Below the pieces are notes generated by a model. The model saw only the letters and a program-made list of their open reading frames with translations. It did not search any database and was not told the DNA's origin. The position numbers were made by a program, and so were the translations under genes. A stretch of DNA of 64,000 nucleotides from a virus. This document shows positions 5,381 through 34,092 of this stretch, one piece after another. Location: positions 1-64,000 of IMG/VR virus record IMGVR_UViG_3300001919_000028; one strand, given 5' to 3'. Numbering within the stretch: the stretch's first letter is position 1; every line of letters begins with the position of its first letter.

Positions 5381-5411
5381 AAAAACTTTTGCTTTGGGTG
5401 CAAAAAGTTTT
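5381..5411. repeat. Imperfect palindrome AAAAACTTTTGC-N7-GCAAAAAGTTTT in a 450-bp AT-rich intergenic region
   Basis: Inverted repeat seen directly; a related motif recurs at 20317-20350. Confidence 0.5.
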
Positions 5412-5709
5412 GTAACAACACTTTCCACCTGAATTGGGAGGTGCCTATTACAAATAGTTGTTTTGGCGGGCAGAGTGAGACCCGCCTCTCCGGCTGTAAA
5501 GCTCAAGGCTCAACACTCAATGCTGAAAGATAAAAGTTAAAAGCTCTTCTTTTTGGATCAAAGTTCAACAGTAAAAGCACAAAGTTCTAACGGTTTATCA
5601 AACCCAGGACGAATGGTTTATCGGGTGAATATGTGGCCGTAGGGATTACCACCTGGCTGGGTGGCAGCGAGTTGATTTTATATACGGCTGGGGAAACCCA
5701 GCCGATCAT

Positions 5710-5785
5710 GGGGATATAGCTCAGTTGGGAGAGCACCTGCTTTGCACGCAGGGGGTCGCCGGTTCAAGTCCGACTATCTCCACCA
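5710..5785 (+). tRNA. tRNA-Ala (anticodon TGC), CCA encoded
   Basis: GGGGATA acceptor with G3:U70, anticodon loop TTTGCAC, T-loop GGTTCAAGTCC. Confidence 0.85.
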
Positions 5786-5812
5786 TCCAAAATTGTATAA
5801 GGAGGAAATACA

Positions 5813-7852
5813 ATGGAGTTTAAGGAGTTCAAGGCAAAGTTCCAGAGACATTTCGCCCAAATGGTCTCCGACGGCCAGCGGCTGTTCGAGGTCGCCGTGG
5901 ACAAGGATGAACTCTGGAACCTGTATCTCGACAGCTTCCCGGCGGGAACGAACGAGATCTACCGCAAGCGCAGGGAGCATGACTGCTCCTGCTGCCGCCA
6001 GTTCATCCGGAATATCGGCAGTGCTGTCATCATCAAGGACAACAAAGTCCACACCCTGTGGGAGTTCGACACTGGCAGCCCTGCGTATCAGCCCGTGGTC
6101 GATGCTCTGGACGCCTACATCAAGGCGCACGCCGTCACCGGTCTGTATCTGACCAAGGTTGCCAAGATCGGCACCGACAAGAACTACGAAACCGCCGAAG
6201 ATGGCCGGGTCACCACATGGGATCACTTCTACCTGGAGCTTCCCCGTACCCTGGTGGAGCGCTCTGGCCGCTCTCTCGGTGACATCCAAAACGACTTCTG
6301 CACCAACAAGCAGGTGTTCAAGCGTTCTCTGGATGAAATCACCCAGGACGCCGTCGATACGGTCCTGGAGCTGATCGCTCAGAACTCCATCTATCGCGGC
6401 AGCGAGTGGAAAGTGGCACTGACCAACTTCCGCACGCTCCAGCGCAAGTATGCCGAGGTCCCTGATGAACTCAAGGACAACTTCGCCTGGGAGCAGTCCA
6501 TCAAGTCCGGTCCCGCCGTCACCCGTATCCGCAACCACAGCATGGGTACTCTGCTGGTCAACATCAGTTCCGGTATGGAACTGGACGAGGCGGTCCGCAA
6601 GTACGAGGCCATCGTCGCCCCGGAGAACTACAAGCGGCCCAAGGCCATCTATACCAAGCGGATGCTGGACGACGCCAAAAAGACCATCACCGACCTGGGC
6701 TATCTGCCCTCTCTGGAGAGGCGGTTCGCCACTCTGGACGACATCACCGTCAATAATATCCTGTTCTCCAACAAGGACGCCGCCAAGCGTATCGGCGGCA
6801 GTGTGTTCGACAAGATGGAGCAGGATGTGGCCGTCAATCCCAAGAAGTTCACCAAGGTGCAGGAGGTTCCGGCTGAGGAGTTCGTCAAGAACGTCCTGCC
6901 TACCGCAAACACCGTGGAGGTGCTTCTGGAGAACCGGCACATCACCAATCTCATGTCCCTTATCGCTCCTGTTCACCCCGACGCGCCTAGTATGTTCAAG
7001 TGGAACAACGGTTTTAGCTGGGCGTACACCGGAAACATGACTGACAGCTCCATGCGGGACAACGTCAAGGCTGCCGGCGGCAAGGTGGACGGAGTCCTCC
7101 GCTTCTCTATCCAGTGGAATGACGGCAGCGACTATGACCGCAACGACCTGGACGCCCACTGTGAAACGCCGAGAGACCACATCTACTTCGGCCACAAGCG
7201 GTGCCAGGCCACCGACGGCAGGCTGGATGTGGACATCATCGACCCGGCCAAGGGACACCCCGCCGTCGAGAATATCACATGGGCAAGCACGGATAAAATG
7301 TGCGCCGGAACGTACATATTCTTCGTCCACTGCTACTCCAACCGTGGAGGCAAGAGCGGGTTCCGGGCGGAAATCGAGTTCAACGGCACAATCTATGCCT
7401 ATGACTACAACAAGCCTCTCCGCCACGGTGAAAAGGTGGAGGTCGCTGTCGTTCAGTACGACGGTCACGGCGGCTTCACGATCCGGGAGCTTCTGCCGTC
7501 CACCACATCAAGCCGTGAGGTGTGGGGCCTGAACTCCAACCAGTTCGTTCCCGTTTCTGTCATTAGCTACTCTCCCAACTATTGGGACGAGCAGACCGGC
7601 ATCGGCAACCGGCACTACTTCTTCTTCCTCAAGGGGTGTGTGAACCCGGACAAGCCCAACGGCTTCTACAACGAGTTCATCAAGCCTGAGCTGGAGAAAC
7701 ACAAGCGGGTATTTGAGGCGTTGGGCAGCCAGATGGCAGTCCAGGACTCCCCCGACCAGCTCTCCGGCCTGGGCTTCTCGTCTACCAAGCGCAACGACCT
7801 GCTGGTGCGTGTCACCGGCGCTTCTGAGCGGATCATCCGCATCAAATTTTAA
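5813..7852 (+). CDS. Large hypothetical protein (679 aa) with N-terminal HDCSCC cysteine cluster; function unknown
   Basis: Long ORF with AGGAGG RBS; the opposing 564-aa minus ORF is the antisense artefact. Confidence 0.65.
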   Translation: MEFKEFKAKFQRHFAQMVSDGQRLFEVAVDKDELWNLYLDSFPAGTNEIYRKRREHDCSCCRQFIRNIGSAVIIKDNKVHTLWEFDTGSPAYQPVVDALDAYIKAHAVTGLYLTKVAKIGTDKNYETAEDGRVTTWDHFYLELPRTLVERSGRSLGDIQNDFCTNKQVFKRSLDEITQDAVDTVLELIAQNSIYRGSEWKVALTNFRTLQRKYAEVPDELKDNFAWEQSIKSGPAVTRIRNHSMGTLLVNISSGMELDEAVRKYEAIVAPENYKRPKAIYTKRMLDDAKKTITDLGYLPSLERRFATLDDITVNNILFSNKDAAKRIGGSVFDKMEQDVAVNPKKFTKVQEVPAEEFVKNVLPTANTVEVLLENRHITNLMSLIAPVHPDAPSMFKWNNGFSWAYTGNMTDSSMRDNVKAAGGKVDGVLRFSIQWNDGSDYDRNDLDAHCETPRDHIYFGHKRCQATDGRLDVDIIDPAKGHPAVENITWASTDKMCAGTYIFFVHCYSNRGGKSGFRAEIEFNGTIYAYDYNKPLRHGEKVEVAVVQYDGHGGFTIRELLPSTTSSREVWGLNSNQFVPVSVISYSPNYWDEQTGIGNRHYFFFLKGCVNPDKPNGFYNEFIKPELEKHKRVFEALGSQMAVQDSPDQLSGLGFSSTKRNDLLVRVTGASERIIRIKF

Positions 7853-8294: not shown

Positions 8295-8627
8295 ATGTGG
8301 TTCTTGAAAGTATTGCTCACGCTCGACATCATCGTTGCAGTGGCTTTCATCGCTTTGTTCATCACCTTTCTCTGCAAGGTGATATATTTGTTCTATGATA
8401 AGCACCCAGGTTTCAAGAGCGCGGACTGCCCCGGCAAAAAGAAACTTCTATGGCCCGATAAAGTCATCATGGCCGTAAAGATTTTGTTTGTTGCTTTCTG
8501 TCCAGTCATCAATGTCCTTGGATGCTATGTCGTGGTTTCAGACTTCGATGTTTTGTGCGACAATGTGCTTCATTCGACTGAGGAGGTTTTCGGTCTTATC
8601 TCTCAAGAGGTGACAGGCCATGATTGA
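8295..8627 (+). CDS. Membrane protein (lower-GC island)
   Basis: Transmembrane segments; GC visibly lower than the surroundings. Confidence 0.5.
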   Translation: MWFLKVLLTLDIIVAVAFIALFITFLCKVIYLFYDKHPGFKSADCPGKKKLLWPDKVIMAVKILFVAFCPVINVLGCYVVVSDFDVLCDNVLHSTEEVFGLISQEVTGHD

Positions 8628-8985
8628 TACAAAGGCTTTGCTCGACCGTGACATCTATGTGTACTGCGAAACAGAGGCACAGGCGGTAGAACTGCTGACA
8701 GCCATGGAAAAAGAGGGGTATCAGTGGAACTCCGGTGAACACATAGCTGGGAATTATATGTGGATGGGCTACGACGACTTTGTCGCCTATCATTTCCGCC
8801 CGAACAAAAAAGTAACCAGGTATGTGACAAGCAGAAGCTATGAGGATTTCCTCGAAGACACGTTCCTTTCTGCGAATTACCCGGATGCTGAACGTATCCA
8901 CGTCAGCGACGTCTGCGATACAGAGCTTGAGACGGCAAGCGACGAGGAACTTTTCTTGCTTCTCGGAATGGGGGTAATGCAATGA
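8620..8985 (+). CDS. Hypothetical protein (lower-GC island)
   Basis: ATG overlaps the upstream stop (ATGATTGA). Confidence 0.5.
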   Translation: MIDTKALLDRDIYVYCETEAQAVELLTAMEKEGYQWNSGEHIAGNYMWMGYDDFVAYHFRPNKKVTRYVTSRSYEDFLEDTFLSANYPDAERIHVSDVCDTELETASDEELFLLLGMGVMQ

Positions 8986-9263
8986 TAGGTGGGAGCGCGG
9001 AATATGATGTCGGCGACATCGTCCGTATCGTAGATAAGCCGTATAGGGAGTGCGTATTCTCCTGGGTAGGTAGCATGGACAAATACTGTTCCAGGACCGC
9101 GAAAATCACATGGACACACGGCACCTGGAAAGGCGAGACCGCCTACACTATCGACATAGACGACGGTGAGCACAGTTGGTGTGCCCACTGCTTCATGCCG
9201 AAAGCTGGTCCCGACTTTGAGCAGGCAGACGACAGTGAGCTGATGACGCTATTTGGTATGTGA
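8982..9263 (+). CDS. Hypothetical protein
   Basis: Overlapping start/stop coupling. Confidence 0.5.
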   Translation: MIGGSAEYDVGDIVRIVDKPYRECVFSWVGSMDKYCSRTAKITWTHGTWKGETAYTIDIDDGEHSWCAHCFMPKAGPDFEQADDSELMTLFGM

Positions 9264-10197: not shown

Positions 10198-10857
10198 ATG
10201 CCTGATTGCCTGGACTCCTATCCGTGGAGGTCACTCAAGGGCTTCGGGACGATGGCCCCGAAAATTTTCCACATCGGAGACTTCAAGAACATCGAGATGA
10301 AAAACGGCGTGATCGTCCCCGTTCATATCATCGGTTTCAACCACGACAAGACGCCGGACGGCAGGCTCTGCCCCATTACCTGGGAGAGCATCAACTGCCT
10401 GAACGACCGCTACTCCATCAATCGGCGTGACACCAACCAGGGTAACTGGGGCGGTTCCGACCTGTTCAGGCAGATGAATGACGATGACGGCTCCATCTTC
10501 CGCCTGTTCCCCGACGATCTCATTGAGGTTGTTGAGCCGGTGGTAAAGCTGACAGCGGAGACCTATGACCGCAGTAACCATATCACGGAGTCCGTCAACA
10601 GGTTCTTTGTGCTGTCTGAAAAAGAAATCTTCGGTCGGTGTATCTTTTCTGCCCCTGGCGAGGGACATTGGTACGAGTGGTACAAGCAGGAGGATGTTCC
10701 GTACTTCAAGCTCCGCAACGGTGAGCTTGAATACAGAGCTACGCGTTCTCCTATTTCCAGCAGCAGCACTAATTTCTGTTGTGTCGGCGGCAGCGGCAAC
10801 GCCGGCTACAGCAGCGCCAGCTACACTATTGGCGTGTCCTTCGGCTTCAGCTTTTAA
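10198..10857 (+). CDS. Hypothetical protein
   Basis: AAGGAGG RBS then ATG. Confidence 0.55.
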   Translation: MPDCLDSYPWRSLKGFGTMAPKIFHIGDFKNIEMKNGVIVPVHIIGFNHDKTPDGRLCPITWESINCLNDRYSINRRDTNQGNWGGSDLFRQMNDDDGSIFRLFPDDLIEVVEPVVKLTAETYDRSNHITESVNRFFVLSEKEIFGRCIFSAPGEGHWYEWYKQEDVPYFKLRNGELEYRATRSPISSSSTNFCCVGGSGNAGYSSASYTIGVSFGFSF

Positions 10858-11067: not shown

Positions 11068-11469
11068 ATGGCAAAGATCACTATCGCAGGGGACGCCGTC
11101 GTCATCACCTCCTCCCAGAAGCTGGACGACATCAAGATGCTGGAGAAGTATCGTCCCAACGCCCTGGTCCTGTACGAGACCAACGACAGCGGCAAGAAGG
11201 AGGCCGTGTTCAAGGTCGGTTCCACCACCGGCAAGGGTGAGATCGGTCGCTACGGCGCCAGCTTCGCCAGCACCACCCACGACGACGACAAGCTGGCCAC
11301 CATCACCATGGCCCTGCCCGCCGGCGTCACCGACGCCAAGAAGGCCGTGGCCGATATGGTGGGCGTCGCCATCCTGAACCTGAACAAGGTCGAGGAGCAG
11401 TTCGCCGCCGCCATCGCCGAGGTCGCCGCCGAGAAGGCCGCCATCGAGGCCAACATCACCGTCGCCTGA
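11068..11469 (+). CDS. Hypothetical protein (133 aa) with Ala-rich C-terminal helix; first gene of the Ubl cassette neighbourhood
   Basis: AAAGGA RBS then ATG; N-terminus shows faint similarity to the 11589 protein (M-K-T… / …ASF…). Confidence 0.55.
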   Translation: MAKITIAGDAVVITSSQKLDDIKMLEKYRPNALVLYETNDSGKKEAVFKVGSTTGKGEIGRYGASFASTTHDDDKLATITMALPAGVTDAKKAVADMVGVAILNLNKVEEQFAAAIAEVAAEKAAIEANITVA

Positions 11470-11486
11470 TTTCAGTCAGGCAAATC

Positions 11487-11509
11487 GGGGCGGGCGGGAT
11501 GCCCGCCCC
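11487..11509 (+). terminator. GC hairpin (GGGGCGGGC-gggat-GCCCGCCCC), weak U tract
   Basis: 9-bp perfect stem after the stop. Confidence 0.4.
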
Positions 11510-11588
11510 AGTCTTCAACCTGGGCGGAAGTCGCCCCTAAATATGTGGTTTCAAACCAAAAAATAAATGAATTAAAGGAGATATCACT

Positions 11589-11816
11589 ATGATCAAGGTT
11601 ACTGTCGGCAACAATGCCAAGCGCGAGTCCGTCATCATCGACGCCAACACCACCCTGCGGTCCTGCCTGGAGGCCAACGGTGTGGACTACACCCGTGGTA
11701 TGACCACCCTGGATGGTTCCACCCTGCAGCCCGGCGACCTGGACAAGACCTTCGCCAGCTTCGGGATCACCGAGAAGTGCTTCCTGTACAACATCGTCAA
11801 GGCGGACAACGCCTGA
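11589..11816 (+). CDS. Small beta-grasp ThiS/MoaD-like (ubiquitin-like) protein, 75 aa; C-terminus …KADNA (no terminal GG)
   Basis: Length and hydrophobic pattern MIKVTVG…TLDGSTLQPGDLD…FLYNIV resemble ThiS/MoaD sulfur carriers; AAGGAG RBS. Confidence 0.45.
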   Translation: MIKVTVGNNAKRESVIIDANTTLRSCLEANGVDYTRGMTTLDGSTLQPGDLDKTFASFGITEKCFLYNIVKADNA

Positions 11817-11830
11817 TCGCAGGATACATA

Positions 11831-11851
11831 GGGGCCGCCTTCGGGCGGCCC
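11831..11851 (+). terminator. GC hairpin GGGGCCGCC-ttcg-GGCGGCCC
   Basis: Stem-loop after the stop, modest T tract. Confidence 0.45.
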
Positions 11852-11858
11852 TTCCTAT

Positions 11859-11911
11859 GTCGGAGCGGTGGATTGGCGCCAACTCCGGTTCGAGTCCGGG
11901 CTCCGGCACCA
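11859..11911 (+). ncRNA. tRNA-like minihelix: 7-bp acceptor stem + T-arm (CCGGTTCGAGTCCGG) + discriminator A + CCA; no D or anticodon arms (possible attP core or tRNA 3' fragment)
   Basis: GTCGGAG…CTCCGGC pair as an acceptor helix around a canonical T-arm and a CCA end. Confidence 0.45.
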
Positions 11912-11936
11912 TCCAGAAAATAAGTGAGGTGTCTAT

Positions 11937-13433
11937 ATGTTCAAAACCACGATATCAGATACTCCATTCACAAGCGATATTGCGAGCTCGTATTTCAGCA
12001 ATATCACCGGCGACCCGATCCTGGGGGATGTGTCGTTTCTCGCAACGCTGAGAGCCCTGCTGGCACCTCGCATTAAGGCGGAGGACACCATCAGGCTCGT
12101 CTACACCACCAGCCGGTACAGCAAGAGCGAGATCAACGGAGCCTCCGTCAACCAGTGTGTGGATGCGATCACCAGCGACATGAGGCTGACCAGGGACGGT
12201 TCTCAGGGGCTGTTCGTCGTCCACAATTTCAGGAGCGACCAGGAGAGCAACCTTGCCAACATGAAGGCGATTGAGGCCGGATTCACCGACCGGTACTCCG
12301 GGTATAGCCGCCTGGAGAAGATGACCGCATTCTTCAAAAAGTCCTTCCCGGTCCTCTGCTATGTCAATCCGGAGCGCCGCAACGTCGTCATGTTCGTGGA
12401 GAGCCTGGACATCAAGAAGATGCACTATCTCCAGATGTCCGTCCTGCCCGCTCTGCCCTGGTACTTCAACCCGGAGGTCGGTATCTCCGAGGACGAGATG
12501 GCGTTGATCCAGTCCCTGCGTGAGACAACGTCAACGAAGTACCTTGAGTGCCTCGAAAAGCTCGCCAAGCAGTACGATTTCAGAACGGCCCGTATCCGTC
12601 AGATGTTGGCGGGGTTCGAGACCAGGTATGAGCAGCGCGAGTGTGAGCAGGTGAAGGGGAATATCCAGAACACCGACAATGAGATTGAGCGGTATAACAA
12701 CCAGATTGGGGTCTTGATCCGCAAGCGGAACGACCTGTGCATCCGGCTCCTCGGTCTGGAGCAGAAGATTGCGGAGGGCTGCGAAGACTCCGACATCATG
12801 GATTACTTCCTCTGCAACTCCAAGCTCTATCTGGAGGAAGTGAACGACTCGGATATGTACTTCTCCGTCAAGGACTATGTGTCCTACTTCGACAAGGACG
12901 CAGTCGAGCGTGTCCTCAACAACAAGACCAGCTACATCTACTGCAACGACCACGGGAACCCGTATACGTCCATCGACCCGGAACGGATGGTAAAACTTAT
13001 CAAGGCTGTGTTCATCGACGAGACCTTGAAGATTAAGTTCTGCGCGGCGTATCGGTTCAGCCTGAACGGCAGCGTGTCCGCGATGGGGGATCACAGCTTC
13101 CCGGCATCTGAGTTCAGCGAGTGTATGCCAAACCCGCACATCAACCAGTACCGCTGTATGGGCGGTTATCAGCAAATCATCAACGATCTCCTGCGGCAGA
13201 ACGACTACATCGGCGCTCTGGAGCAGTGCATCGCGTCTTGCAAGAGTCTGAACTTTTGTGACTCCGCCGTGATGCGCGCCTTCATGAGACAGATGTATGG
13301 CTCCAGCGGTACGAACAGCCGCTGTATCGAACTGCCAGACGGCAGTGTGGTCAAGCCGTTGGCGGCAATCAAGTGGCTTGAGGAACAGGAGGCGGCAGCA
13401 AATGGGACGAAGGAGGAAGAAGCGCATGAGTAA
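11937..13433 (+). CDS. 498-aa Cys-rich protein of the Ubl cassette; candidate E2/E3-like partner or target (unknown)
   Basis: Long ORF overlapping the JAB gene start; multiple Cys/His clusters in the C-terminal half; no recognisable family. Confidence 0.65.
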   Translation: MFKTTISDTPFTSDIASSYFSNITGDPILGDVSFLATLRALLAPRIKAEDTIRLVYTTSRYSKSEINGASVNQCVDAITSDMRLTRDGSQGLFVVHNFRSDQESNLANMKAIEAGFTDRYSGYSRLEKMTAFFKKSFPVLCYVNPERRNVVMFVESLDIKKMHYLQMSVLPALPWYFNPEVGISEDEMALIQSLRETTSTKYLECLEKLAKQYDFRTARIRQMLAGFETRYEQRECEQVKGNIQNTDNEIERYNNQIGVLIRKRNDLCIRLLGLEQKIAEGCEDSDIMDYFLCNSKLYLEEVNDSDMYFSVKDYVSYFDKDAVERVLNNKTSYIYCNDHGNPYTSIDPERMVKLIKAVFIDETLKIKFCAAYRFSLNGSVSAMGDHSFPASEFSECMPNPHINQYRCMGGYQQIINDLLRQNDYIGALEQCIASCKSLNFCDSAVMRAFMRQMYGSSGTNSRCIELPDGSVVKPLAAIKWLEEQEAAANGTKEEEAHE

Positions 13434-14379
13434 GGTTGTCAGAATCACTCCGGAAATGTATGAGGAGTGCAGGCAGGAGTTGGAGAAGTGCTGCCAGAAC
13501 GCGAAGCTCTCCGACGGCAAAATCACATTCACCAAGGTTTTCACCGCTGAGAAGCGGAAGGCGACCCTGTTCTTCACCGATGAAGCGTGGGCGAAGATGA
13601 CCATGCTTCTCCAGGAGTTCGACAAGGAGGTGGCGTGGCATGGCGTCGCCTACCGGCTGGACACCGAGGGGAAGGACGAGTACGTCATCACCGATATCCT
13701 GGTCTATCCCCAGGAGGTCTCCGCCGCGACAGTGGAGATGGACGTCGAGAAGTACGCCAAGTGGCTGATGGAAAACGACGAGGACGAGCGGTTCCAGAAT
13801 ATCCATATGCAGGGTCACAGCCATGTCCGTATGGCACCCAATCCGTCGGCGACCGACATCACACATCAGGAGGAGATCCTCGCCCAGCTCGACGATGATA
13901 ACTTCTACATCTTCATGATCTACAACAAGTCTTTCAGCCGGAACATCAAGATCTACGACATGAAGAAGAACATCCTGTTCGAGGATGGGGATGTCGAGGT
14001 CAAGCTCCAGAGTGCAGTCACTGGCTTTGACGAGTTCATCGCGGATGCCAAGGCAAAGGTCGTGTCCAAGACCTACACCTACAACCAGGGCAGCTACCAG
14101 AGGCCGTCCTATCAGACCCCGACGTATCAGCAGCCGGGGACCTACAAGGGGAACGTGCCGTACAATCCGCTCAGTCCGGCACCTGTCGCCCCTGTCACCC
14201 CGGCTTCCGGGGCGAACCCTCCCAAGCAGGAGAGCAAGAAGAAGGAAAAGGAAAAGAGAAAGGTTCAGATCGGGGCCGGTTGGCACGGTGTGAACGGATA
14301 TGAGCAGGAGTCGCTGTACGGCATGGGCGGCCAGCTCGACGATGACGATGACCCGTATTGGTCCGGATCAGGGAGGTAA
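13426..14379 (+). CDS. JAB/MPN+ (JAMM) metalloprotease (deubiquitinase-like) with Pro/Gln/Tyr-rich C-terminal tail
   Basis: JAMM motif E…HMQGHSHVRMAPNPSATD (HxHx7Sx2D). Confidence 0.8.
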   Translation: MSKVVRITPEMYEECRQELEKCCQNAKLSDGKITFTKVFTAEKRKATLFFTDEAWAKMTMLLQEFDKEVAWHGVAYRLDTEGKDEYVITDILVYPQEVSAATVEMDVEKYAKWLMENDEDERFQNIHMQGHSHVRMAPNPSATDITHQEEILAQLDDDNFYIFMIYNKSFSRNIKIYDMKKNILFEDGDVEVKLQSAVTGFDEFIADAKAKVVSKTYTYNQGSYQRPSYQTPTYQQPGTYKGNVPYNPLSPAPVAPVTPASGANPPKQESKKKEKEKRKVQIGAGWHGVNGYEQESLYGMGGQLDDDDDPYWSGSGR

Positions 14380-14383
14380 CAAG

Positions 14384-15055
14384 ATGGATCTTTCCAAGAG
14401 CTACGAATATTTCCAGCCTGAGAAAATCGACGCCCGCATCCACATCATCGGGTGCGGGTCCGTGGGGTCCACCGTGGCGGAGAATCTCGCCAGGAGCGGC
14501 GTGTCGAAGATGACGCTATGGGATTTCGATGTGGTGGAACCGAAGAACCTGGCAAACCAGATGTTCCGGCAGAAAGATGTCGGTCAGCGCAAGGTGGATG
14601 CTCTGCTGGATATCCTGACCGAGATCAATCCGGACATCGTCGATGATGTGAAGCTCCAGCCGGATGGCTGGAAAGGCCAGCAGCTCAACGGGTATGTGTT
14701 CCTGTGCGTGGACAACATCGAACTGCGGAAGCAGATCGTGGAGATGCACATGAACAATCCATACGTTAAGGCCATGTTCGACTTCCGCACCCGGCTGGAG
14801 GATGCCCAGCACTACGCGGCAGACTGGTCGAACTACAAGATGAAGAAGGATTTCCTGAACTCCATGAACTTCTCCCATGACGAGGCCAAGGAGGAGACGC
14901 CGGTCTCCGCCTGCAACGTGACCTTGTCCGTCTGCCCCACCGTCCGGGTCATCTGCGCCCTGGGTGTGGCCAACTTTATGAACTTCTGGAACGGGAAGGG
15001 CTTGAAGAAGCTGATTCTGGCCGACTCGTTCAACTTCTCGCTGGACGCCTTTTGA
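14384..15055 (+). CDS. ThiF/MoeB/E1-like adenylyltransferase (Ubl-activating enzyme)
   Basis: Rossmann motif IHIIGCGSVGSTVAENL; downstream Cys cluster C-x6-C-x6-C; E1-family size. Confidence 0.85.
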   Translation: MDLSKSYEYFQPEKIDARIHIIGCGSVGSTVAENLARSGVSKMTLWDFDVVEPKNLANQMFRQKDVGQRKVDALLDILTEINPDIVDDVKLQPDGWKGQQLNGYVFLCVDNIELRKQIVEMHMNNPYVKAMFDFRTRLEDAQHYAADWSNYKMKKDFLNSMNFSHDEAKEETPVSACNVTLSVCPTVRVICALGVANFMNFWNGKGLKKLILADSFNFSLDAF

Positions 15056-15081
15056 TGGCGTCCGGTGAGATATGAAAGGAG

Positions 15082-15390
15082 GTGGCTCGGTTGAGAAGAT
15101 TTAACGTCGGTGATATCGCCACAGTCAGAAGAGATATCGAAGCTGGTAAGTATTACAAAATGGACGACGGCCATGATGATGATGTTGTCACTGCGGACAT
15201 GGCTAAAATGGCCGGAAGACAAATCGAAATCCTTGCGATCAGCAGCGCTGGGACATACATCGCCAGAACAGACAAGCAGAGACGGTACTGGACCGATGAA
15301 ATGTTTGAGTCCTCGGATTTTGAGGAGAGCGACGTCCCAATCGAGTCATTCCTGTTCGGCGATCTTGATCTGAAAGGCGGTGAAGCGTAA
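15082..15390 (+). CDS. Small ubiquitin-like protein candidate with C-terminus …ESFLFGDLDLKGG-EA (diglycine plus 2-residue extension); alternative TTG start at 15091
   Basis: C-terminal match to the ubiquitin …ESTLHLVLRLRGG pattern; located immediately after the E1 gene. Confidence 0.5.
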   Translation: MARLRRFNVGDIATVRRDIEAGKYYKMDDGHDDDVVTADMAKMAGRQIEILAISSAGTYIARTDKQRRYWTDEMFESSDFEESDVPIESFLFGDLDLKGGEA

Positions 15391-16223
15391 TGCAGCCCAC
15401 GGTAAAAAGTCTGCGGCTTGGCAGCAAGCTGCTCTTTGGCAGGTATGGTGTGAAAGCGGACATGGAACCGCAGCCCATCACATGGTTGAAGGCCACGCCA
15501 AACTGTGATTTGGTCTCGGAGAGTGTGGTGGACTTTCTGTGCTTTGACGCAAAGGAACGCTATCCCGTCGAGAACCGGGCGTGGCCGGAGGTAAGGCCGA
15601 ACGACTGTTGGCATCTGTCCAACATCTTCCAGTATCTGAACAGCGAGGAGGACAACTGGTTCCACAAGCTGCACGAGCAGGATGTGGCACCGGCCAGAGG
15701 GTACTCCGATGTGGATTCCCCCGAAGCTGTCTACTCGGCACACTACGGGTTCCTGAGATACTTCGAGGACTTTGAGCTTGCCAATCTGCTGGATCAGACA
15801 TACATAATCAATGATTTGGAGTGTACCTCCAAGATGCGTCTCCTATCCGTCGCTGATGTGTCCGGAGATACGAGGTTCAACGTGTTCCGCAAGCGTGGTA
15901 TCCGTGCCCATCCGACAGTAGATATCCAGCGGTATAAGTATAACGCTCCAGGGTCTTCGACGGAACAGTTCATGGGTTTCTTCCTGATGGACAAGCCGAA
16001 CAGGGCGGGTTGGAGCAGTTATGTGCAGGCGGTTGGCCGTAACGGAAGCGTCTATGCCGAGTATGCCAGCCACGGGCTTGGTATCCGTCCGACTTGCCGG
16101 ATAAAGCCGGACACCAAGGTTGAGGAAGTAGAGGACGGCGTCTACACTGTCGTTCCTTACGATGTTCATCCGATTCCGGTTGGAACGGATGAAGAAATCA
16201 TGATGCTCTTAGGTCTGGTGTGA
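15390..16223 (+). CDS. Hypothetical protein (277 aa)
   Basis: TAATG stop/start overlap with the upstream gene. Confidence 0.55.
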   Translation: MQPTVKSLRLGSKLLFGRYGVKADMEPQPITWLKATPNCDLVSESVVDFLCFDAKERYPVENRAWPEVRPNDCWHLSNIFQYLNSEEDNWFHKLHEQDVAPARGYSDVDSPEAVYSAHYGFLRYFEDFELANLLDQTYIINDLECTSKMRLLSVADVSGDTRFNVFRKRGIRAHPTVDIQRYKYNAPGSSTEQFMGFFLMDKPNRAGWSSYVQAVGRNGSVYAEYASHGLGIRPTCRIKPDTKVEEVEDGVYTVVPYDVHPIPVGTDEEIMMLLGLV

Positions 16224-16571
16224 CCTCAACAGCACCATCTGTAACGCATTTACCTCGCAAGAGGAGCTTCACGCCGATGGTTGAAGTAACAAATAGCTGA
16301 GAAGAAAAAGAATGCCCCGAGATGCCTGGCGAAGGTGGACCGAGTCTGGGAACGAGGCCATCGCATCCACGAAGGTTAAGAACTCGCACGGGAGTAGAGA
16401 GAAATCCCCGAATCCCAAGGATTTCGTCTCCTGCACCTGGTGAGAGAACCGGCAGTCCGAAGACTCACAGAGCTGCAATGCGCTGCGGGCGCCTTCATCG
16501 CAGATCACGAGCCCAGTCGTCTTACTTATGTAGGTTACAGATATCTTATAATGAAAAGAGGTGCGGAGATA
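16224..16571 (+). ncRNA. Structured noncoding region upstream of the RT (candidate retron msr/msd or RT-associated ncRNA)
   Basis: 348 bp without a credible ORF; several hairpins (e.g. AAATCC…GGATTT, CTGCG…CGCAG). Confidence 0.35.
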
Positions 16572-17708
16572 ATGGTTTATATGACTGTCATGCAGTCTCC
16601 GATGTACCATCAGATGACGCTGGACGAGTTCCTGTTCAACACCTATAAGGAAAGTCCGGTCGTCAACTACAATGTCGGCAACACCAGGACTTACAAGTTC
16701 GACAATATCAGTCGTAGATTTTTGGACAGCATCGACGTCCCCAGTTTGATTTTGACTCTCCAGGCGTTCAACAACAGCACGGAAGCGCTCCGCCGGGTCA
16801 AGCGGTCGGACCTCTACATCACATTCTATATCCCCAAGAAGAGCGGAGGGCTCCGTAAGATTGACGAGCCGAAGCCGGAATTGATGGATGCGCTTCGCCG
16901 CCTCAAGACGATTTTCGAGCGGGACTTCCACACTCTGTATCACACCAGTGCATTTGCGTACATCCAAGGGCGGTGTACCGTTGATGCGATCAAGCGTCAT
17001 CAGGCCAACGAGAGCAAGTGGTTTGGCAAGTATGACCTCCACAACTTCTTCGGAAGCACGACGCTCGAGTTCGTCATGCAGCAACTCAGCATGATCTTCC
17101 CGTTCAGCGAAGTGGTGAAGCTGGAGTCCGGGCGTGCCGAGCTGGAGAAAGCGCTGGAACTTGCGTTCCTCAACGGCGGTTTGCCGCAGGGAACGCCGTT
17201 CTCTCCGACCATCACCAATGTGATGATGATCCCCGTTGACTACGAGCTGTCACACGGGTTCCGCAACCTCAACAACCAGAGCTTTGTCAACACCAGATAC
17301 GCGGATGACTTCACGATTTCCTCCAAGTATGAGTTCGACCCAAAGGAAATCGAGAAGTTCATCACGGATACGTTGGCTCAGTTCAATGCGCCGTTTACAT
17401 TGAACGAGTCAAAGACGAGATACGGCTCCAGTTCCGGACGCAACTGGAACCTTGGGCTGATGCTCAACAAGGACAACGTGATTACGGTCGGCCACAAGCG
17501 GAAGCGTCAGCTCCAGACGATGCTCCACAATTACATTCTTGACAAAAGGAATGGGATCAGGTGGGATCTGCACGATGTGCAGGTAATGGACGGGAACATC
17601 AACTACTGCCGGATGGTCGAAGAGGAGGCGACAAACAACATCATCAAGCATATCAATGAGAAAATGGGCGTCGATGTTTGCAGAATGATAAGAGAAGACC
17701 TGAGATAA
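16572..17708 (+). CDS. Reverse transcriptase, retron/UG (defence-associated) type
   Basis: RT motifs IPKKSGGLRKI, AF.YIQGR, YDLHNFFGS, LPQGTPFSP, YADD, NLGLMLNKDN…KRKRQLQTMLHN; QG..SP (not DGR-type). Confidence 0.85.
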   Translation: MVYMTVMQSPMYHQMTLDEFLFNTYKESPVVNYNVGNTRTYKFDNISRRFLDSIDVPSLILTLQAFNNSTEALRRVKRSDLYITFYIPKKSGGLRKIDEPKPELMDALRRLKTIFERDFHTLYHTSAFAYIQGRCTVDAIKRHQANESKWFGKYDLHNFFGSTTLEFVMQQLSMIFPFSEVVKLESGRAELEKALELAFLNGGLPQGTPFSPTITNVMMIPVDYELSHGFRNLNNQSFVNTRYADDFTISSKYEFDPKEIEKFITDTLAQFNAPFTLNESKTRYGSSSGRNWNLGLMLNKDNVITVGHKRKRQLQTMLHNYILDKRNGIRWDLHDVQVMDGNINYCRMVEEEATNNIIKHINEKMGVDVCRMIREDLR

Positions 17709-20350: not shown

Positions 20351-20500
20351 CGATCCAAAAAGACGCGTCGCTTTGTGCATATGCCGCCCTGACAATCGAC
20401 GGGCGGCATACGGACAACGTCTGGGGAGCCGGGAATGGGGGAGCGGGAGGAGCCCGCTCCCCGCCCGGTGTTTTATTATGAAGAAACAGGGGTAAGGAAA

Positions 20501-21049
20501 ATGAAAGTTCTCGTTGTTGTCGATATGCAAAAAGATTTCGTCGATGGTTCGCTCGGAACGAAAGAGGCCGTCGCCATCGTCCCGAATGTCGTGGATAAGA
20601 TCCTCAAGTTTGACGGCGACGTCATCGCCGTGACCCAGGACACCCACCACGACAACTACCTGGAGACCCAGGAGGGCAAGAAGCTCCCGGTGAAGCACTG
20701 CATCAAAGGTTCCGAGGGGTGGATGCTGGCACCGGCTATCACCGCTGCACTCTCAACGCAGACCGGTATGGTGGTCATGGACTTCTTCCATAAGGAGACC
20801 TTCGGTTCTGTTGAGATGTGCGAGTGGCTGTCTGAACTCAATGCCGAGGAGGAGAGCATCGACGAAATCGAAGTGGTCGGCCTGTGTACTGACATCTGTG
20901 TGGTATCCAACGTGCTGATGATGAAGGCATATATGCCGGAAGTTCCCATCACAGTGGACGCCTCCTGCTGTGCCGGTGTCACGCCGGAGAGCCATGCTGC
21001 GGCCATCACGACCATGAAAGCCTGCCAGATCAATGTGATTGGCGAGTAA
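20501..21049 (+). CDS. Isochorismatase-family cysteine hydrolase, nicotinamidase (PncA)-like
   Basis: VVDMQKDF…, catalytic Cys in GLCTDICV; RBS AAGGAAA. Confidence 0.75.
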   Translation: MKVLVVVDMQKDFVDGSLGTKEAVAIVPNVVDKILKFDGDVIAVTQDTHHDNYLETQEGKKLPVKHCIKGSEGWMLAPAITAALSTQTGMVVMDFFHKETFGSVEMCEWLSELNAEEESIDEIEVVGLCTDICVVSNVLMMKAYMPEVPITVDASCCAGVTPESHAAAITTMKACQINVIGE

Positions 21050-21338
21050 CTTTGCAGTGTATGCGGTGGCGGAATAGACACTATCCTCATTGTGGTAAAG
21101 CCTACGGAGCCATATCGTGACCAAATAATCGGGGCGTCTGAGGCGCTTCTAAGCAGCCCGCCCGGTGGCGCACGGTACAGTCAGTCTCCCAAACGGCAAT
21201 AGTAGACGCAAACTAAGGGGTTGCGGGTGGAGTCGTCGCTGAAATAGAGCTGGCACTTCCGAGACACCCGTATGCGTGGTGCAAATCCACGCCCGCATAT
21301 GAATTTCAAGTTTTAAGGCATGAAAGGAGTGCCTGACC

Positions 21339-22130
21339 ATGATAGAAATCAACAAGAACAAGGTGGAGCTGAACCGGTTCCCGGACGGGACACTGGCTCT
21401 GCGGTACTACGACAACTCTCCCGTGCAGAATATCCGGTGGCGCTACGACGGGGACGAGGAGTGCATGGCCATCTGGTATCTCGTCCACCATATCCGTGAG
21501 TCGTATCCGCTGACGGAGATCAACCTCTATCTTCCATACCTCCCCAACGCGAGGATGGACCGGGTGAAGAACGAGGACGAGGTGTTCACGCTCAAGTGGT
21601 TCGCCAAGTTCATCAACGGTCTTCGCTTCGACCGGGTGTGGGTGACAGATCCGCACTCCAATGTCGGTATCGCCCTTCTGGATAGAGTATCGCAGGAGGA
21701 CATCAAGCCGAACGTCTACGGCTGGGTGCTCAATGATATTGAACGCGGAACGCATGATACCGTCCTATGTTTCCCCGACGAGGGAGCGTCCAAGAAGTAC
21801 GCCAGCATGTTCCCCGATTATCCCCATGTGTTCGGCATCAAGCACAGGGATTGGCGGACCGGCAAGATCCTCGGCCTGTCCATCACCAATGAAGAGCTGG
21901 TGAGCGGCCATCAGGTTCTGATCGTGGACGACATCTGCTCTCGCGGCGGGACGTTCATGCACACTGCCGCCGCACTGAAAGAGGCCGGCGCAACCAAGGT
22001 CTACCTGTATGTCACCCACTGTGAGAACAACATCTTCAACGGCGACGTGCTGTCCTCCGACCTCATTGAGCACGTCTACACGACGGACAGCATTTTCCGG
22101 GGCAGCCACCCGAAAATCACGGTTTTATAA
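21339..22130 (+). CDS. Ribose-phosphate pyrophosphokinase (PRPP synthetase)-like protein; possible ADPR-PP synthetase of a phage NAD+ reconstitution pathway
   Basis: Type I PRTase PRPP-binding motif VLIVDDICSRGGTF; two-domain Prs-like length; adjacent to the NAMPT-family gene. Confidence 0.7.
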   Translation: MIEINKNKVELNRFPDGTLALRYYDNSPVQNIRWRYDGDEECMAIWYLVHHIRESYPLTEINLYLPYLPNARMDRVKNEDEVFTLKWFAKFINGLRFDRVWVTDPHSNVGIALLDRVSQEDIKPNVYGWVLNDIERGTHDTVLCFPDEGASKKYASMFPDYPHVFGIKHRDWRTGKILGLSITNEELVSGHQVLIVDDICSRGGTFMHTAAALKEAGATKVYLYVTHCENNIFNGDVLSSDLIEHVYTTDSIFRGSHPKITVL

Positions 22131-22187
22131 ACCAATCATTTCCCATAACCAGCGGAAATGATATATTTCAAAAAGGAGTGTATAGCG

Positions 22188-23711
22188 ATGATTTCCTACA
22201 ATCCTCTGCTGTGCCTTGACTTCTATAAGACAGCCCACGTGGCGCAGTATCCGGCAGGTCTCACCAAGATGGTGTCCTACTACACGCCCCGCATGAGCCG
22301 TCTTGGCGATACGGATAAGGTCACACTGTTCGGGCTCCAGGCTTTCATTCAGGACTACCTGGTTGACGCCTTCAATCAGGACTTCTTCAACCGGGACATT
22401 GAGGAAGTGGTTGCGGAGTATAAGCGAGTTCTCAACGCCACCATCGGAACCGACGGTGTTGGCGAGGCCCGTGTCCGTGAGCTCCACGATCTCGGCTTTC
22501 TGCCTCTGGAGATCCGGGCTGTCCCGGAGGGCGTGAGAACCGACATCAAGGTTCCGCAAATCGAGATCACCAACACCCATCCCGACTTCGTGTGGTTGGT
22601 CAACACCATCGAGACCATGCTCTCCGCCACCATGTGGCACACCCAGGTCTCGGCGGAGGTCGGCTACCGCTATCGCCAGATCGTCGAGGAGTTTGCAGAG
22701 CGCACCTGTGATGACAGCGTGGTTCGCTCCAGGCTTCTCGGCGATTTCTCTATGCGCGGGCAGGAGAGTGTGGAGAGCGCCACCAAGAGTTCCGCCGCCT
22801 TCCTCCTGAGCTTCCTGAACACCGCCACCGTTCCGGCTATCCTATGGCTGGAGGAGCACTATGACTGCGACATCGGCGTGAATCAGGTCGGGTACGGCGC
22901 ACTCTCCACCGAGCACAGTGTGATGTGCTCCAACTACGCCGTGGACGGCGACGAGGAGACGCAGATCCGCCGCTTGCTCACCGAGATCTATCCCCATCAG
23001 AGTTTCTCCATGGTCAGCGACAGCTATGACTACTGGAACTTGGTCAACGACATCCTCCCCAAGTTGAAGGACGAGATCCTTGCCCACGACGGCTGCCTCT
23101 CCGTTCGCGGTGACAGCGGCGACCCCGTGGAAATCGTGACGAAGACCGTGTTCGCCCTCTGGGACATCTTCGGCGGGACCGTGAACAGCAAGGGCTTCAA
23201 AGTCCTTGACCCCCATGTCAAGGCGCTCTATGGGGACAGCATCACGCCGCAGCGGTGCCGTGAGGTCTACACCATTCTGGAGCAGAACGGGTTCGCCATC
23301 AACAACGTGTCCCTCGGCGTCGGTTCCTTCTCCATGCAGTGTCTGGAAACGCTGGAGCTGGACGGGTATCAGTTGTCACACCCGTGCGCTCCACGCCCCA
23401 TGACATACAAGCCCTACACCCGTGACACCTTCGGCATCGCCGTCAAGGCCACCTATGCCGAGGACAAGGACGGCAATCCCATCATGATTTTCAAGAACCC
23501 AAAGACAGACAACGGGCACTTCAAGAAGTCCCAGCGCGGCTGCTGCCGTGTGTTCAAGACCAAGTACGGTTACGACTATGTGGACGGTCTGACCTGGAAA
23601 CAGGCCAACACTGGTGAGAACGAGCTCTACCCGGTGTTCGTGAACGGCCTCTTCATCAAGCGGTACACTCTGGACGAGGTGCGGCAGAACCTGCACAACG
23701 GAAAGTTCTGA
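22188..23711 (+). CDS. Nicotinamide phosphoribosyltransferase family protein (NadV/NAMPT-like; could be Namat of NARP1)
   Basis: N-terminal YNPLLCLDFYKTAHV signature and about 500 aa length typical of NAMPT/NadV; AAGGAG RBS. Confidence 0.75.
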   Translation: MISYNPLLCLDFYKTAHVAQYPAGLTKMVSYYTPRMSRLGDTDKVTLFGLQAFIQDYLVDAFNQDFFNRDIEEVVAEYKRVLNATIGTDGVGEARVRELHDLGFLPLEIRAVPEGVRTDIKVPQIEITNTHPDFVWLVNTIETMLSATMWHTQVSAEVGYRYRQIVEEFAERTCDDSVVRSRLLGDFSMRGQESVESATKSSAAFLLSFLNTATVPAILWLEEHYDCDIGVNQVGYGALSTEHSVMCSNYAVDGDEETQIRRLLTEIYPHQSFSMVSDSYDYWNLVNDILPKLKDEILAHDGCLSVRGDSGDPVEIVTKTVFALWDIFGGTVNSKGFKVLDPHVKALYGDSITPQRCREVYTILEQNGFAINNVSLGVGSFSMQCLETLELDGYQLSHPCAPRPMTYKPYTRDTFGIAVKATYAEDKDGNPIMIFKNPKTDNGHFKKSQRGCCRVFKTKYGYDYVDGLTWKQANTGENELYPVFVNGLFIKRYTLDEVRQNLHNGKF

Positions 23712-32658: not shown

Positions 32659-33069
32659 AGCGTGGAATGTTGGCTTAGAGGCAGCCATCATCTAAGGAGT
32701 AAATCGTGGCCATCGTAGGAGTTATGCCGGAGGAATCCCGGACGCGACCTACGGGATGCAGATGAACATCCTGCTTTGCAGACAGCCTATGTCAGCGCTG
32801 GACTTAGTGGCTGATATCTGCATTCGGCGACTGGGCGGGAGTGTGACCCGCAAGGCGTATGTGAGTAGCAGAGTGTGGAACTCATGCGCTTGCCATAGGC
32901 AACTCTGCCATGGATTTTTTGGCGTGACAGCACACCATGTTTTTTCGCTGTTTTAATTTAGGATTTTGCCGCAGGCTTTGTCCCTCAATGCCTGCCGGAG
33001 CGTTTGAACTACGCATTATATTGCTTATTCAATGCTTCGCCGCAACATTATAAAACTGGGGTGAGCTAT

Positions 33070-34092
33070 ATGACGATTGAACAAATCAAAGAAATGATTG
33101 CCGGGGAGCAGTATGATTTCCTGTGGACGAACCCGCATCTGTCGTACAAAATCATGTTCCTGACCATGGGAGGCAGCTACGCCTACGGAACCAACGTGGA
33201 GACATCTGATGTGGATGTGCGCGGTTGTACGCTCAACAGCAGAAGCGACATCCTTGGCCTGACGAGTTTCGAGCAGGTGGTCCACACGCAGACGGACACC
33301 GTCATCTACTCATTCAACAAGCTGGTCAGCCTCCTGCTGAACTGCAATCCAAACACGATTGAACTTCTCGGCTGCAAGCCGGAGCATTACTTCTTCGTTT
33401 CTCCCATTGGACAGGAGATGATCGACAACAAGAAGATTTTCCTGTCCCGCCGGGCGGCTGAGTCCTTCGGCGGATATGCCACACAGCAGCTTCGCAGGTT
33501 GAAGAACGCCCTCGCCAGGGACAAGATGTCCCAGGCCGACAACGAGGAACATATCCTCGACGCCATGAAGCGGGCGGTCAAGTCTTTCAGGGATAAGTAC
33601 AGCCACTTCGACAAGGGAAGTGTCAGACTGTACACCGCAGACAGTGAGCGGGACGATCTCGACCGCGAGGTTTTCGCTGACATCCACTTGGACAAGTATC
33701 CGGTGCGTGATTTCAGCATTATGATGAACTCCCTCTCCAACGTGATCGGGAACTACGAGAAGCTGAACCACAGGAACCATAAGAAGGACGACGCCCACCT
33801 CAACAAGCACGCCATGCACCTTATCCGGCTGTACCTGATGTGCCTGGATATTTTGGAGAAGGGCGAAATCAACACCTACCGTGCAAACGACAGGGATTTT
33901 CTGCTCAGTATCCGCCACGGATATTTCCAAAAGGAAGACGGTATGTTCCGGCAGGAGTTCTTCGATATTGTGGAGGACTATGAGAAGCGCCTGCAATATG
34001 CAAAGGCGAACACCTCCCTCCCGGACCAGCCGGACATGAAAGTGGTCGGAGAGTTTGTGGAAAGCGTGAACAGGAGGGCGATTGATGAATAG
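33070..34092 (+). CDS. Pol-beta-superfamily nucleotidyltransferase with GS-x3-G-x5-SDxD motif (cGAS/SMODS/MNT-like)
   Basis: GGSYAYGTNVETSDVDVRG motif near the N-terminus; directly upstream of the CCA-adding enzyme. Confidence 0.65.
   Translation: MTIEQIKEMIAGEQYDFLWTNPHLSYKIMFLTMGGSYAYGTNVETSDVDVRGCTLNSRSDILGLTSFEQVVHTQTDTVIYSFNKLVSLLLNCNPNTIELLGCKPEHYFFVSPIGQEMIDNKKIFLSRRAAESFGGYATQQLRRLKNALARDKMSQADNEEHILDAMKRAVKSFRDKYSHFDKGSVRLYTADSERDDLDREVFADIHLDKYPVRDFSIMMNSLSNVIGNYEKLNHRNHKKDDAHLNKHAMHLIRLYLMCLDILEKGEINTYRANDRDFLLSIRHGYFQKEDGMFRQEFFDIVEDYEKRLQYAKANTSLPDQPDMKVVGEFVESVNRRAIDE

Follow-up and report, generated by a model that had tools for sequence, protein, structure and literature searches.

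Positions 1 to 64,000 of the IMG/VR virus record IMGVR_UViG_3300001919_000028 (64,000 nucleotides, hereafter the window) harbor a block of five genes, here called A to E, that is probably a phage-encoded, self-contained ubiquitin-like (Ubl) conjugation module with the gene order of the bacterial Bil operons plus an extra partner, A. The genes are real and the block is syntenic. Gene A (11068-11469, 133 aa) codes for a conserved partner of the Ubl and lies just upstream of the Ubl gene itself, B (11589-11816, 75 aa), whose product is a beta-grasp protein of the ubiquitin/SUMO/BilA type. Gene C (11937-13433, 498 aa) carries a UBC/RWD-like domain, gene D (13426-14379, 317 aa) codes for a JAB/JAMM (MPN+) metallopeptidase and gene E (14384-15055, 223 aa) for a minimal single-domain ThiF/E1 adenylyltransferase. 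They are co-oriented on the plus strand, as are the motifs and domains described within them, and the list of open reading frames bears out this orientation and the coordinates given by the first-pass annotation of the locus. The same annotation had described a phage-borne cassette of a beta-grasp protein, a Cys-rich partner, a JAB protease, an E1 and a second Ubl. The set of E1, JAB and beta-grasp proteins is indeed real, but its membership differs: gene A, which lies inside the interval and was left unnamed, is a conserved member of the block, and the supposed second Ubl, gene F, is excluded from it. The genes had also been called translationally coupled. This holds for C and D, where the ATG start taken for D belongs to a reading frame that overlaps the C stop by 8 nt, and for D and E, which are 4 nt apart, but not for the A-B and B-C intervals, which measure about 120 nt each and contain GC-rich hairpins, with a transfer RNA (tRNA) remnant in the second.

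The Ubl, its terminus and its partner

The folds of A and B were modelled via P0390, a naturally fused homologue that shares 63% identity with the B and 47% with the A of the window. In this AlphaFold2 model, with a mean predicted local distance difference test (pLDDT) score of 90.3, B adopts the order beta-beta-alpha-beta-beta-3(10)-beta followed by a tail of lower confidence. B had been taken for a ThiS/MoaD-like protein; the beta-grasp fold stands, but its structural neighbors are closest to ubiquitin, SUMO and BilA, and the Gly-Gly end is missing. At the family level, Pfam assigns DUF2604 to 11 of 33 members and TUG-UBL1 or Cobl-Ubl to others.

The C-terminus of B is its most unusual feature. 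The invariant tail motif K71-A-D-N-A75 (nt 11799-11813) is found as KADNA in 164 of 179 distinct B-type sequences, and B does not end in Gly. What follows the ...NA is variable: a stop codon in 77 sequences, one to eight non-conserved residues in 33 (for example A, AA, R, GQ, LAA or HPLSAVKA), and a fused A domain in 69. Since the residue after ...NA in the B-A fusions is always Ala, cleavage behind Asp-Asn-Ala would yield the same N-terminus as that of free A after removal of its Met. A fixed end with either a variable extension or another protein behind it is typical of Ubl precursors that are processed by the peptidase of their own operon, as has been shown for BilA/BilC and BubAB/BubCD. 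Neither this terminus nor the widespread Ubl-A fusions had been recognized in the first-pass annotation.

The fusions, with A joined behind the C-terminal end of B, group into about 70 clusters when a 90% identity threshold is used. A fusion is the sole source of B in locus L090, two tandem B-A fusion genes are present in L089 (6262-7624), and L064 harbors an array of the form A, B-A, B-A, B (5399-7811). Moreover, three independent assemblies carry a second A-B pair, 100% identical to the first and 8 kb downstream of it, at 17269-17980 in L001, 13255-13966 in L002 and 10995-11706 in L003. Such amplification is reminiscent of a polyubiquitin-type gene dosage. The A part of the fusion model is an alpha/beta domain with a C-terminal helical hairpin that matches no recognised fold. 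Comparisons that considered A as an E2, as a MoaE-like protein or as a paralogue of one of the two C domains gave no support and detected no UBC similarity.

A candidate E2-like protein

The C protein matches no Pfam, NCBIfam, PADLOC or PHROG family, and its AlphaFold2 model (pLDDT 92) has been the main guide to its architecture. In the model, aa 1-226 (nt 11937-12614) fold into an N-terminal alpha/beta domain and aa 227-280 (nt 12615-12776) into a single long helix of some 54 residues. The E2-like domain, which resembles UBC/RWD folds, spans aa 283-472 (nt 12783-13352), and a C-terminal helix closes the protein. The E2-like domain runs from a helix through two strands, a helical insert and two further strands to a long loop and three helices. 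Its structural matches with low root-mean-square deviation include Spc24/Spc25, the RWD domains of GCN2 and listerin, RWDD3, RNF25 and FANCL, together with Ubc12, a Plasmodium E2 and BilB. The kinetochore proteins among them consist of a coiled coil followed by an RWD domain, which is the layout of the long helix and C-domain of C.

Among 278 full-length members, H401 is present in all, N399 and C407 in 277 each, G409 in 274 and P398 in 270. These residues form the motif P-N-x-H-x5-C-x-G between the last beta strand and the next helix of the C-domain, corresponding in the window to the predicted E2 active-site loop P398-N399-P-H401-I-N-Q-Y-R-C407-M-G409 (13128-13163). The spacing from Asn to Cys is 8, as it is in the HPN...C motif of UBE2D2 (N77 to C85). 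The best local alignment obtained with hhalign against five canonical E2s pairs PNxH..C with HPN..C, though without significance (P=0.35). No significant E2 similarity was detected at the sequence level by Pfam searches of 68 members or by a profile hidden Markov model against the PDB, and Foldseek returned no PDB match for the model. On balance, it is likely that C contains a divergent E2-like domain.

Three statements of the first-pass annotation bear on this protein. That no canonical E2 was recognisable proves too pessimistic and needs revision, as the UBC/RWD-like domain of C contains an invariant PNxH-x5-C motif; the accompanying guess that the 498-aa protein may be a non-canonical E2 is supported. 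The description of C as a Cys-rich partner does not carry over to the family, in which C407 is the only universally conserved cysteine.

The JAMM peptidase and the E1

The D protein harbors a domain at about aa 45-200 with the full zinc-site signature of the JAB/JAMM (MPN+) peptidases (E ... H-x-H-x7-S-x2-D). Its E68 and the downstream H131-S-H133-x7-S141-x2-D144 (nt 13816-13857) are present, and E68, H131, H133, S141 and D144 are invariant in 34 relatives. PADLOC recognizes D as JAB (E=4.9e-5), Prok-JAB gives a weak match in 9 of the 34 members, and Rpn11, aligned on the JAMM motif, is the only PDB profile matched. The protein ends in a low-complexity tail that is Lys-rich and acidic. Its earlier assignment as a JAMM metalloprotease is thus confirmed by the invariant motif, the PADLOC match and the Rpn11 alignment.

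The E protein is a ThiF-family protein by Pfam (E=1e-24, 87.5 bits vs a cutoff of 28.1; ThiF domain at aa 16-206) and retains the GxGxxG loop and the adenylation residues of E1 enzymes. G23-C-G-S-V-G28 (nt 14450-14467, the Rossmann nucleotide motif), D47, D49, N58-Q59, K70 and D110 are invariant, and Cys177, in the E-T-P-V-S-A-C177 stretch (nt 14894-14914) of the crossover-loop region, is conserved in 50 of 51 sequences. With the Pfam score, the invariant loop and this cysteine, the ThiF/E1 adenylyltransferase proposed at first pass holds. The nearest solved relatives are Uba1 (1e-12), MoeB (1e-11) and UBA5 (3e-10), then TcdA, Cap2, MccB and ThiF, with PaaA also among them. The best PADLOC match is to the Cap2 'E1-E2' models (4e-21) and covers the Rossmann part only (aa 16-86), to which the NCBIfam and PADLOC E1 matches are confined. 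E has neither CxxC zinc motifs nor a separate Cys domain. Equivalence to PRTRC, 6A-MBL, Cap2 or ThiF/MoeB proteins was rejected, all scores lying far below their cutoffs (for example 86 bits vs 159 for the ThiF equivalog). By its sequence features E is best described as a minimal single-domain ThiF-family adenylyltransferase outside any named equivalog.

Conservation and distribution

The order A-B-C-D-E is kept in every related locus with sufficient flanks (about 85 loci), and relatives in which C is as little as 24% identical still have the block in the same place, usually with a reverse transcriptase gene behind it. The C family is large: over 715 close homologues were counted, and clustering at 50% identity yields 1716 groups. 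Carriers comprise 65 IMG/VR loci, 17 GTDB loci (all on contigs of metagenome-assembled genomes, MAGs, mostly in Clostridia bins) and several ENA/NCBI contigs of 100-220 kb; all are phage or MAG contigs. Among 185,579 species-representative genomes, 17 carry the block and 17 of the 17 are MAGs. The C family was not found in cultured phages or isolate genomes. The one GenBank carrier, MT835544.1, is an unannotated uncultured record from human faeces, and it is the only GenBank phage with nucleotide similarity to the window. Identities across relatives are 63-88% for B and 56-87% for E, which are far better conserved than C (24-68%) and A (32-77%). Where B is 63-88% identical, the value for C is 37-68%.

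Comparison with known systems

Prokaryotic Ubl conjugation has been demonstrated only recently, in the Bil, Bub and CBASS Cap2/Cap3 systems, and always as a bacterial anti-phage weapon. The closest organization is that of Bil Type I and Type II/'6C-CEHH', bacterial anti-phage operons (Hor et al. 10.1101/2023.09.04.556158; Chambers et al. 10.1101/2023.09.26.559546) in which BilABCD code for Ubl, E2, JAB peptidase and E1 in this order, and in which BilA has a conserved Gly followed by up to 9 residues that are trimmed by BilC (bioRxiv 10.1101/2023.09.26.559546). The order B-C-D-E is identical to Ubl-E2-JAB-E1 in the window and in all related loci, the Ubl likewise bears a short non-conserved C-terminal extension, and the E2 is not accompanied by a separate E3. 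However, the cassette is encoded by a phage and not by a bacterial defence-island operon. The beta-grasp fold is shared but ends in Asp-Asn-Ala instead of the universally conserved Gly, and E is a single adenylation domain of 223 aa, whereas BilD has an IAD-AAD-CYS architecture. The E2-like domain is only one part of the 498-aa C, which has an N-domain and a long helix in addition, and the motif of this domain is PNxH-x5-C instead of C...H. The partner A, often fused to the Ubl, is additional, and there is no significant sequence similarity beyond generic E1 and JAB models.

In Type I Bub systems ('6E/DUF6527'), the Ubl-E2 fusion BubAB is cleaved by the JAB domain of BubCD (Ye et al., PMC11601596). 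Here too a Ubl is fused at its C-terminus to an operon protein of about 130 aa, its release by the operon JAB having been shown experimentally in Bub only, and the E1 is a minimal, probably homodimeric ThiF/UBA5-like domain. In contrast, the Bub partner is an E2 with invariant Ser/His/Asp that forms oxyesters, whereas A has no invariant Ser/His/Cys and no UBC similarity. Cysteines are kept in E (Cys177) and C, unlike in the Bub JAB-E1, which has no crossover-loop Cys; D and E are separate genes, and the predicted cleavage site follows Ala, not Gly. Pfam matched DUF6527/BubE in none of the cassette proteins.

Type II CBASS shares the Cap2 models matched by E, the PADLOC JAB model matched by D, the logic of a ThiF-like homodimeric E1 and a JAB that trims or reverses conjugation. 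The cassette differs from it by having no CD-NTase substrate, unfused E1 and E2, and a dedicated beta-grasp Ubl. The ThiS/MoaD-ThiF/MoeB pathways, including CysO and QbsE, similarly combine a small beta-grasp protein with a minimal adenylyltransferase and, in some cases, a JAMM peptidase that exposes the C-terminus, but the cassette has no Gly-Gly and no sulfur-acceptor enzyme such as ThiG, MoaE, CysM or TtuA in the operon, and contains an E2-like protein. The PRTRC_ThiF model gives E 29.8 bits against a cutoff of 144.75, and no other PRTRC model is matched by A-D. Eukaryotic polyubiquitin and ubiquitin-ribosomal fusions offer an analogy in their tandem arrays, N-terminal Ubl fusions and junctions exactly at the Ubl C-terminus, which imply a dedicated peptidase. 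This is analogy alone, as the partners are not homologous and the junction is Asp-Asn-Ala|Ala instead of Gly-Gly|X. Finally, the lambdoid/T1 tail-assembly proteins TAPI (Ubl) and TAPK (JAB-NlpC/P60) form a phage Ubl and JAB pair (Iyer et al. 2006, PMC1779556). Unlike the block described here, they belong to a tail module without E1 or E2, with a conserved C-terminal Gly in the Ubl and a JAB fused to NlpC/P60. They are the only phage precedent that we found in the literature, where no report of a phage-encoded E1/E2/JAB/Ubl system was encountered.

Proposed mechanism and alternative readings

From folds, motifs, conservation and synteny we infer the following biochemical steps. A and B would be produced in excess, as suggested by their own ribosome-binding sites, the hairpin behind each gene, and the duplications, arrays and fusions; in relatives, a tRNA gene ahead of C may also contribute to separate A-B expression. 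The JAMM peptidase D would cut right after ...V-K-A-D-N-A, removing one to eight residues or freeing a fused A. The ThiF-type E1 E, probably a homodimer like ThiF, MoeB and UBA5, would then adenylate the exposed C-terminal carboxylate of B, take it onto Cys177 as a thioester and hand it to Cys407 in the E2-like domain of C. C could join B to target lysines as an E2/E3 hybrid, its N-domain and long helix providing dimerisation and substrate choice, and D may additionally reverse the conjugation. Because A is co-amplified with B and both appear to be needed in bulk, A is the leading candidate for a first substrate or an adaptor. The predicted diagnostic tryptic remnant of such conjugates is Lys plus ADNA, +371.14 Da.

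This proposal is strengthened by the pattern at the B terminus, which parallels the trimming of BilA and the cleavage of BubAB. Several observations weigh against it. A Ubl that does not end in Gly is without precedent among the conjugation systems whose literature we consulted, the papers on Bil, Bub and CBASS all stressing Gly (10.1101/2023.09.26.559546, PMC11601596). E lacks the multidomain architecture of BilD, and it is from its position alone that Cys177 is proposed as the thioester site. The evidence for an E2 in C is only moderate, A has no invariant Ser/His/Cys and no recognisable catalytic residues, and synteny within a single phage clade may reflect shared ancestry instead of functional linkage.

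Some of these points can also be accommodated without any conjugation cascade, if B-A is simply a precursor matured by D, in which B serves as a cis-chaperone or solubility tag for A. E would then carry out MccB-like Asn adenylation and succinimide chemistry, or a cyclisation, on KADN(A), and C would be a scaffold whose conserved Cys, His and Asn bind metal or serve otherwise. MccB acts on a C-terminal Asn, and such a reading agrees with an invariant non-Gly tail that contains Asn, with MccB and PaaA among the PDB relatives of E, with the moderate E2 evidence and with the co-amplification and fusion of A and B. However, the 223-aa E has no N-terminal peptide-clamp domain as in MccB and PaaA, to which its homology is limited to the Rossmann core, and its conserved crossover-loop Cys would be needless for adenylation-only chemistry. 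Moreover, PNxH-x5-C occurs at E2 spacing within a UBC/RWD-like domain, and the gene order is identical to that of Bil. We consider this reading unlikely.

The same conjugation chemistry could instead serve superinfection exclusion, with a phage-carried, Bil-like tagging of virion proteins of rival phages. Every Ubl-E2-JAB-E1 operon characterised to date acts against viruses, defence systems are often carried by phages, and a retron-type reverse transcriptase lies behind the cassette in most loci. However, the block is no variable island: all related loci examined have it in the same place, even with C as little as 24% identical, and its neighbours are genes for replication, tRNAs and NAD (nicotinamide adenine dinucleotide) salvage. 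Its restriction to phage or MAG contigs (all 17 positive species-representative genomes being MAGs) does not fit an accessory defence system well. We give exclusion the same low probability as the cascade-free reading. Since the block is core to the phage clade and not a variable island, a part in the phage's own infection programme is favoured over an accessory one, the favoured role being the modification of host or phage proteins, possibly countering host defences.

The thiocarboxylate sulfur-carrier role raised at first pass, in which B would be thiocarboxylated via E after D exposes its C-terminus, with sulfur from a class-V aminotransferase/cysteine desulfurase-like protein for tRNA or cofactor thiolation, is very improbable: it draws on the best NCBIfam matches of E being ThiF/MoeB models (though far below cutoff), on a class-V aminotransferase gene in the window (46718-48088, Pfam 2e-71), on window genes for tRNA-Glu(UUC), tRNA-Lys(UUU) and tRNA-Gln(UUG), and on known sulfur systems that combine JAB, Ubl and E1, such as CysO/Mec+ (Iyer 2006), but it is disfavoured by the invariant KADNA in place of Gly-Gly, by the affinity of B to ubiquitin, SUMO and BilA, by an E2-like protein with an invariant Cys inside the operon, by the distance of about 32 kb to the aminotransferase, by a fusion and pair amplification foreign to sulfur carriers, and by the absence of any thiouridylase/PP-loop, ThiG, MoaE or rhodanese gene in the cassette or among the open reading frames scanned beside the aminotransferase. 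The three tRNA species concerned are those that bear s2U34 in bacteria.

Noncoding elements of the cassette

Two GC-rich hairpins are present on the plus strand. The first, at 11487-11509, was read from the sequence 18 nt past the stop of A and has a 9-bp stem (GGGGCGGGC/GCCCGCCCC); it was not called by a simple terminator scan because it has no T-run, and is a possible attenuator or RNA-stability element. The second, at 11832-11851, follows the stop of B (GGGCCGCC-TTCG-GGCGGCCC), and a hairpin at this position is also conserved in relatives.

Between B and C, on the same strand, lies an internally deleted tRNA-Leu(UAA) gene (11859-11911) that retains the start of the 5' acceptor and D arm, the T arm, the 3' acceptor and an encoded CCA. 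ARAGORN and Rfam made no call on this copy, but alignment reveals an intact tRNA-Leu(UAA) of 86-87 nt with encoded CCA at the same intra-operon position in five relatives (L005 9890-9975, L006 3733-3818, L007 7889-7975, L042 7891-7976 and L067 7889-7975). The tRNA-like minihelix of the first-pass annotation is thus a decayed tRNA gene. Lying between the Ubl gene and the enzyme genes, a tRNA might serve RNase P/Z as a processing site and so uncouple the expression of A-B from that of C-D-E. Rfam searches of the intergenic regions returned nothing meaningful, and scans for sigma-70 promoters and terminators were uninformative.

Gene F and the neighboring genes

Gene F (plus strand, 15082-15390, 102 aa) follows E and ends in ...LKGGEA, for which it had been taken as a second, 99-102-aa Ubl. 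LKGG is present in none of 9 aligned homologues. The domain common to the homologues (G-D-x-V-x-V-R-x-D-L...W-T-D-E-M-F) gives a family profile that matches the SH3-repeat domain of Mind bomb (PDB 4tse_A, E=0.0039), and Pfam SH3_15 is found in 4 of 10 members. F-like genes lie 3' of the E1 gene only in the window and in L071/L072, being placed otherwise or tandemly repeated in other relatives. On these three observations F is rejected as a second Ubl and placed outside the system; it looks like a Mind-bomb-type SH3-like protein. Its true start is uncertain because the GTG at 15082 abuts the Shine-Dalgarno-like AAAGGAGG without a spacer (15075-15084).

F shares an acidic-hydrophobic C-terminal tail, D-x-x-[IV]-x-[SA]-[LF]-[LF]-G, with three unrelated small proteins of the window, the four genes lying at 8620-8985, 8982-9263, 15082-15390 and 15390-16223 (tails SDEELFLLLGMGVMQ, DDSELMTLFGM, DVPIESFLFGDL... 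and TDEEIMMLLGLV, respectively). The same tail closes F-like proteins of other phages and looks like a modular docking peptide for a common partner, perhaps clamp- or hub-binding.

The last of these genes, G (15390-16223), is directly downstream of F, and on the other side the cassette is flanked by up1 (10198-10857). Both products show a weak likeness to DUF6273 (E=4e-3 for G and 8e-4 for up1), and G also matches a PHROG annotated as 'Hoc-like head decoration' (2.5e-12). Either of the two might be a virion or surface protein and, as such, a candidate target of conjugation. Downstream of G lies a gene for a retron-type reverse transcriptase (16440-17708), which matches the NCBIfam retron St85 family with 162 bits vs a cutoff of 235 and PADLOC RT_II-A with 5e-44. 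Nearly all relatives have it 3' of the gene for the ThiF-type enzyme, whether or not G intervenes, even at about 25% identity of C (for example L005 14322-15461, L088 6954-8291 and L090 10541-11695); its link to the Ubl cassette may be functional or one of synteny only.

About half of the relatives harbor an extra gene for a very acidic protein of 140-200 aa between the JAB and ThiF genes, absent from the window (for example L039 10547-11023, L089 10229-10651 and L067 10521-11063). Its N-terminus is conserved (MTRxEF...W.DL..FC....C..C.DVY...DIPTGYDYY), and it may be an optional subunit, its small Cys motif perhaps binding zinc.

By its gene annotation, the window represents the non-structural part of a large phage genome, with 8 tRNAs and genes for NAMPT, DNA ligase, a CCA-adding enzyme, RNA ligase, DnaB, primase and Pol III alpha. 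The NAMPT gene is part of an NAD+ salvage set with isochorismatase/nicotinamidase-like and PRPP-synthetase-like genes, and the CCA-adding enzyme and RNA ligase are joined by a RlaP-like nucleotidyltransferase in a set for RNA repair and tRNA maintenance, to which RtcB is added in the relatives L004/L005. Together the two sets occupy 20435-23711, 33004-35422 and 43150-43785, and they resemble phage counter-defence modules against NAD-depleting and tRNA-cleaving systems. In addition, ARAGORN called a transfer-messenger RNA in a related phage contig (L059 1194-1603) with the tag peptide ANNNTEIVMVHPALIAALEGAAA.

Implications

The high interest of the locus rests on its location in a phage, its abundance and its unusual Ubl terminus. 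Taken to its full extent, the proposal would mean that a large clade of uncultured gut phages (about 1,700 E2-like clusters at 50% identity) runs a complete Ubl conjugation pathway as a core function, the first E1/E2/deubiquitinase/Ubl cascade encoded by phages and the first with a non-glycine (Asp-Asn-Ala) end. The Ubl would be supplied from polyubiquitin-like arrays and Ubl-partner fusions, and an E2/E3 hybrid of 500 residues would steer it to proteins of the host or the virion, for instance to reprogramme the host or to blunt its Ubl-based immunity. We advance this wider picture tentatively, as having slightly less than an even chance of being correct in all its parts.

If the cassette conjugates, its compact E1 (223 aa), Ubl (75 aa) and KADNA-specific peptidase would offer a potential orthogonal system for ligation and tag removal. 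A function could be assigned to four or five large families (A, B, C, D) that Pfam does not yet annotate, and the cassette would call into question the accepted rule of a glycine end for Ubl proteins. Phages would then be using in the arms race the chemistry that their hosts use.

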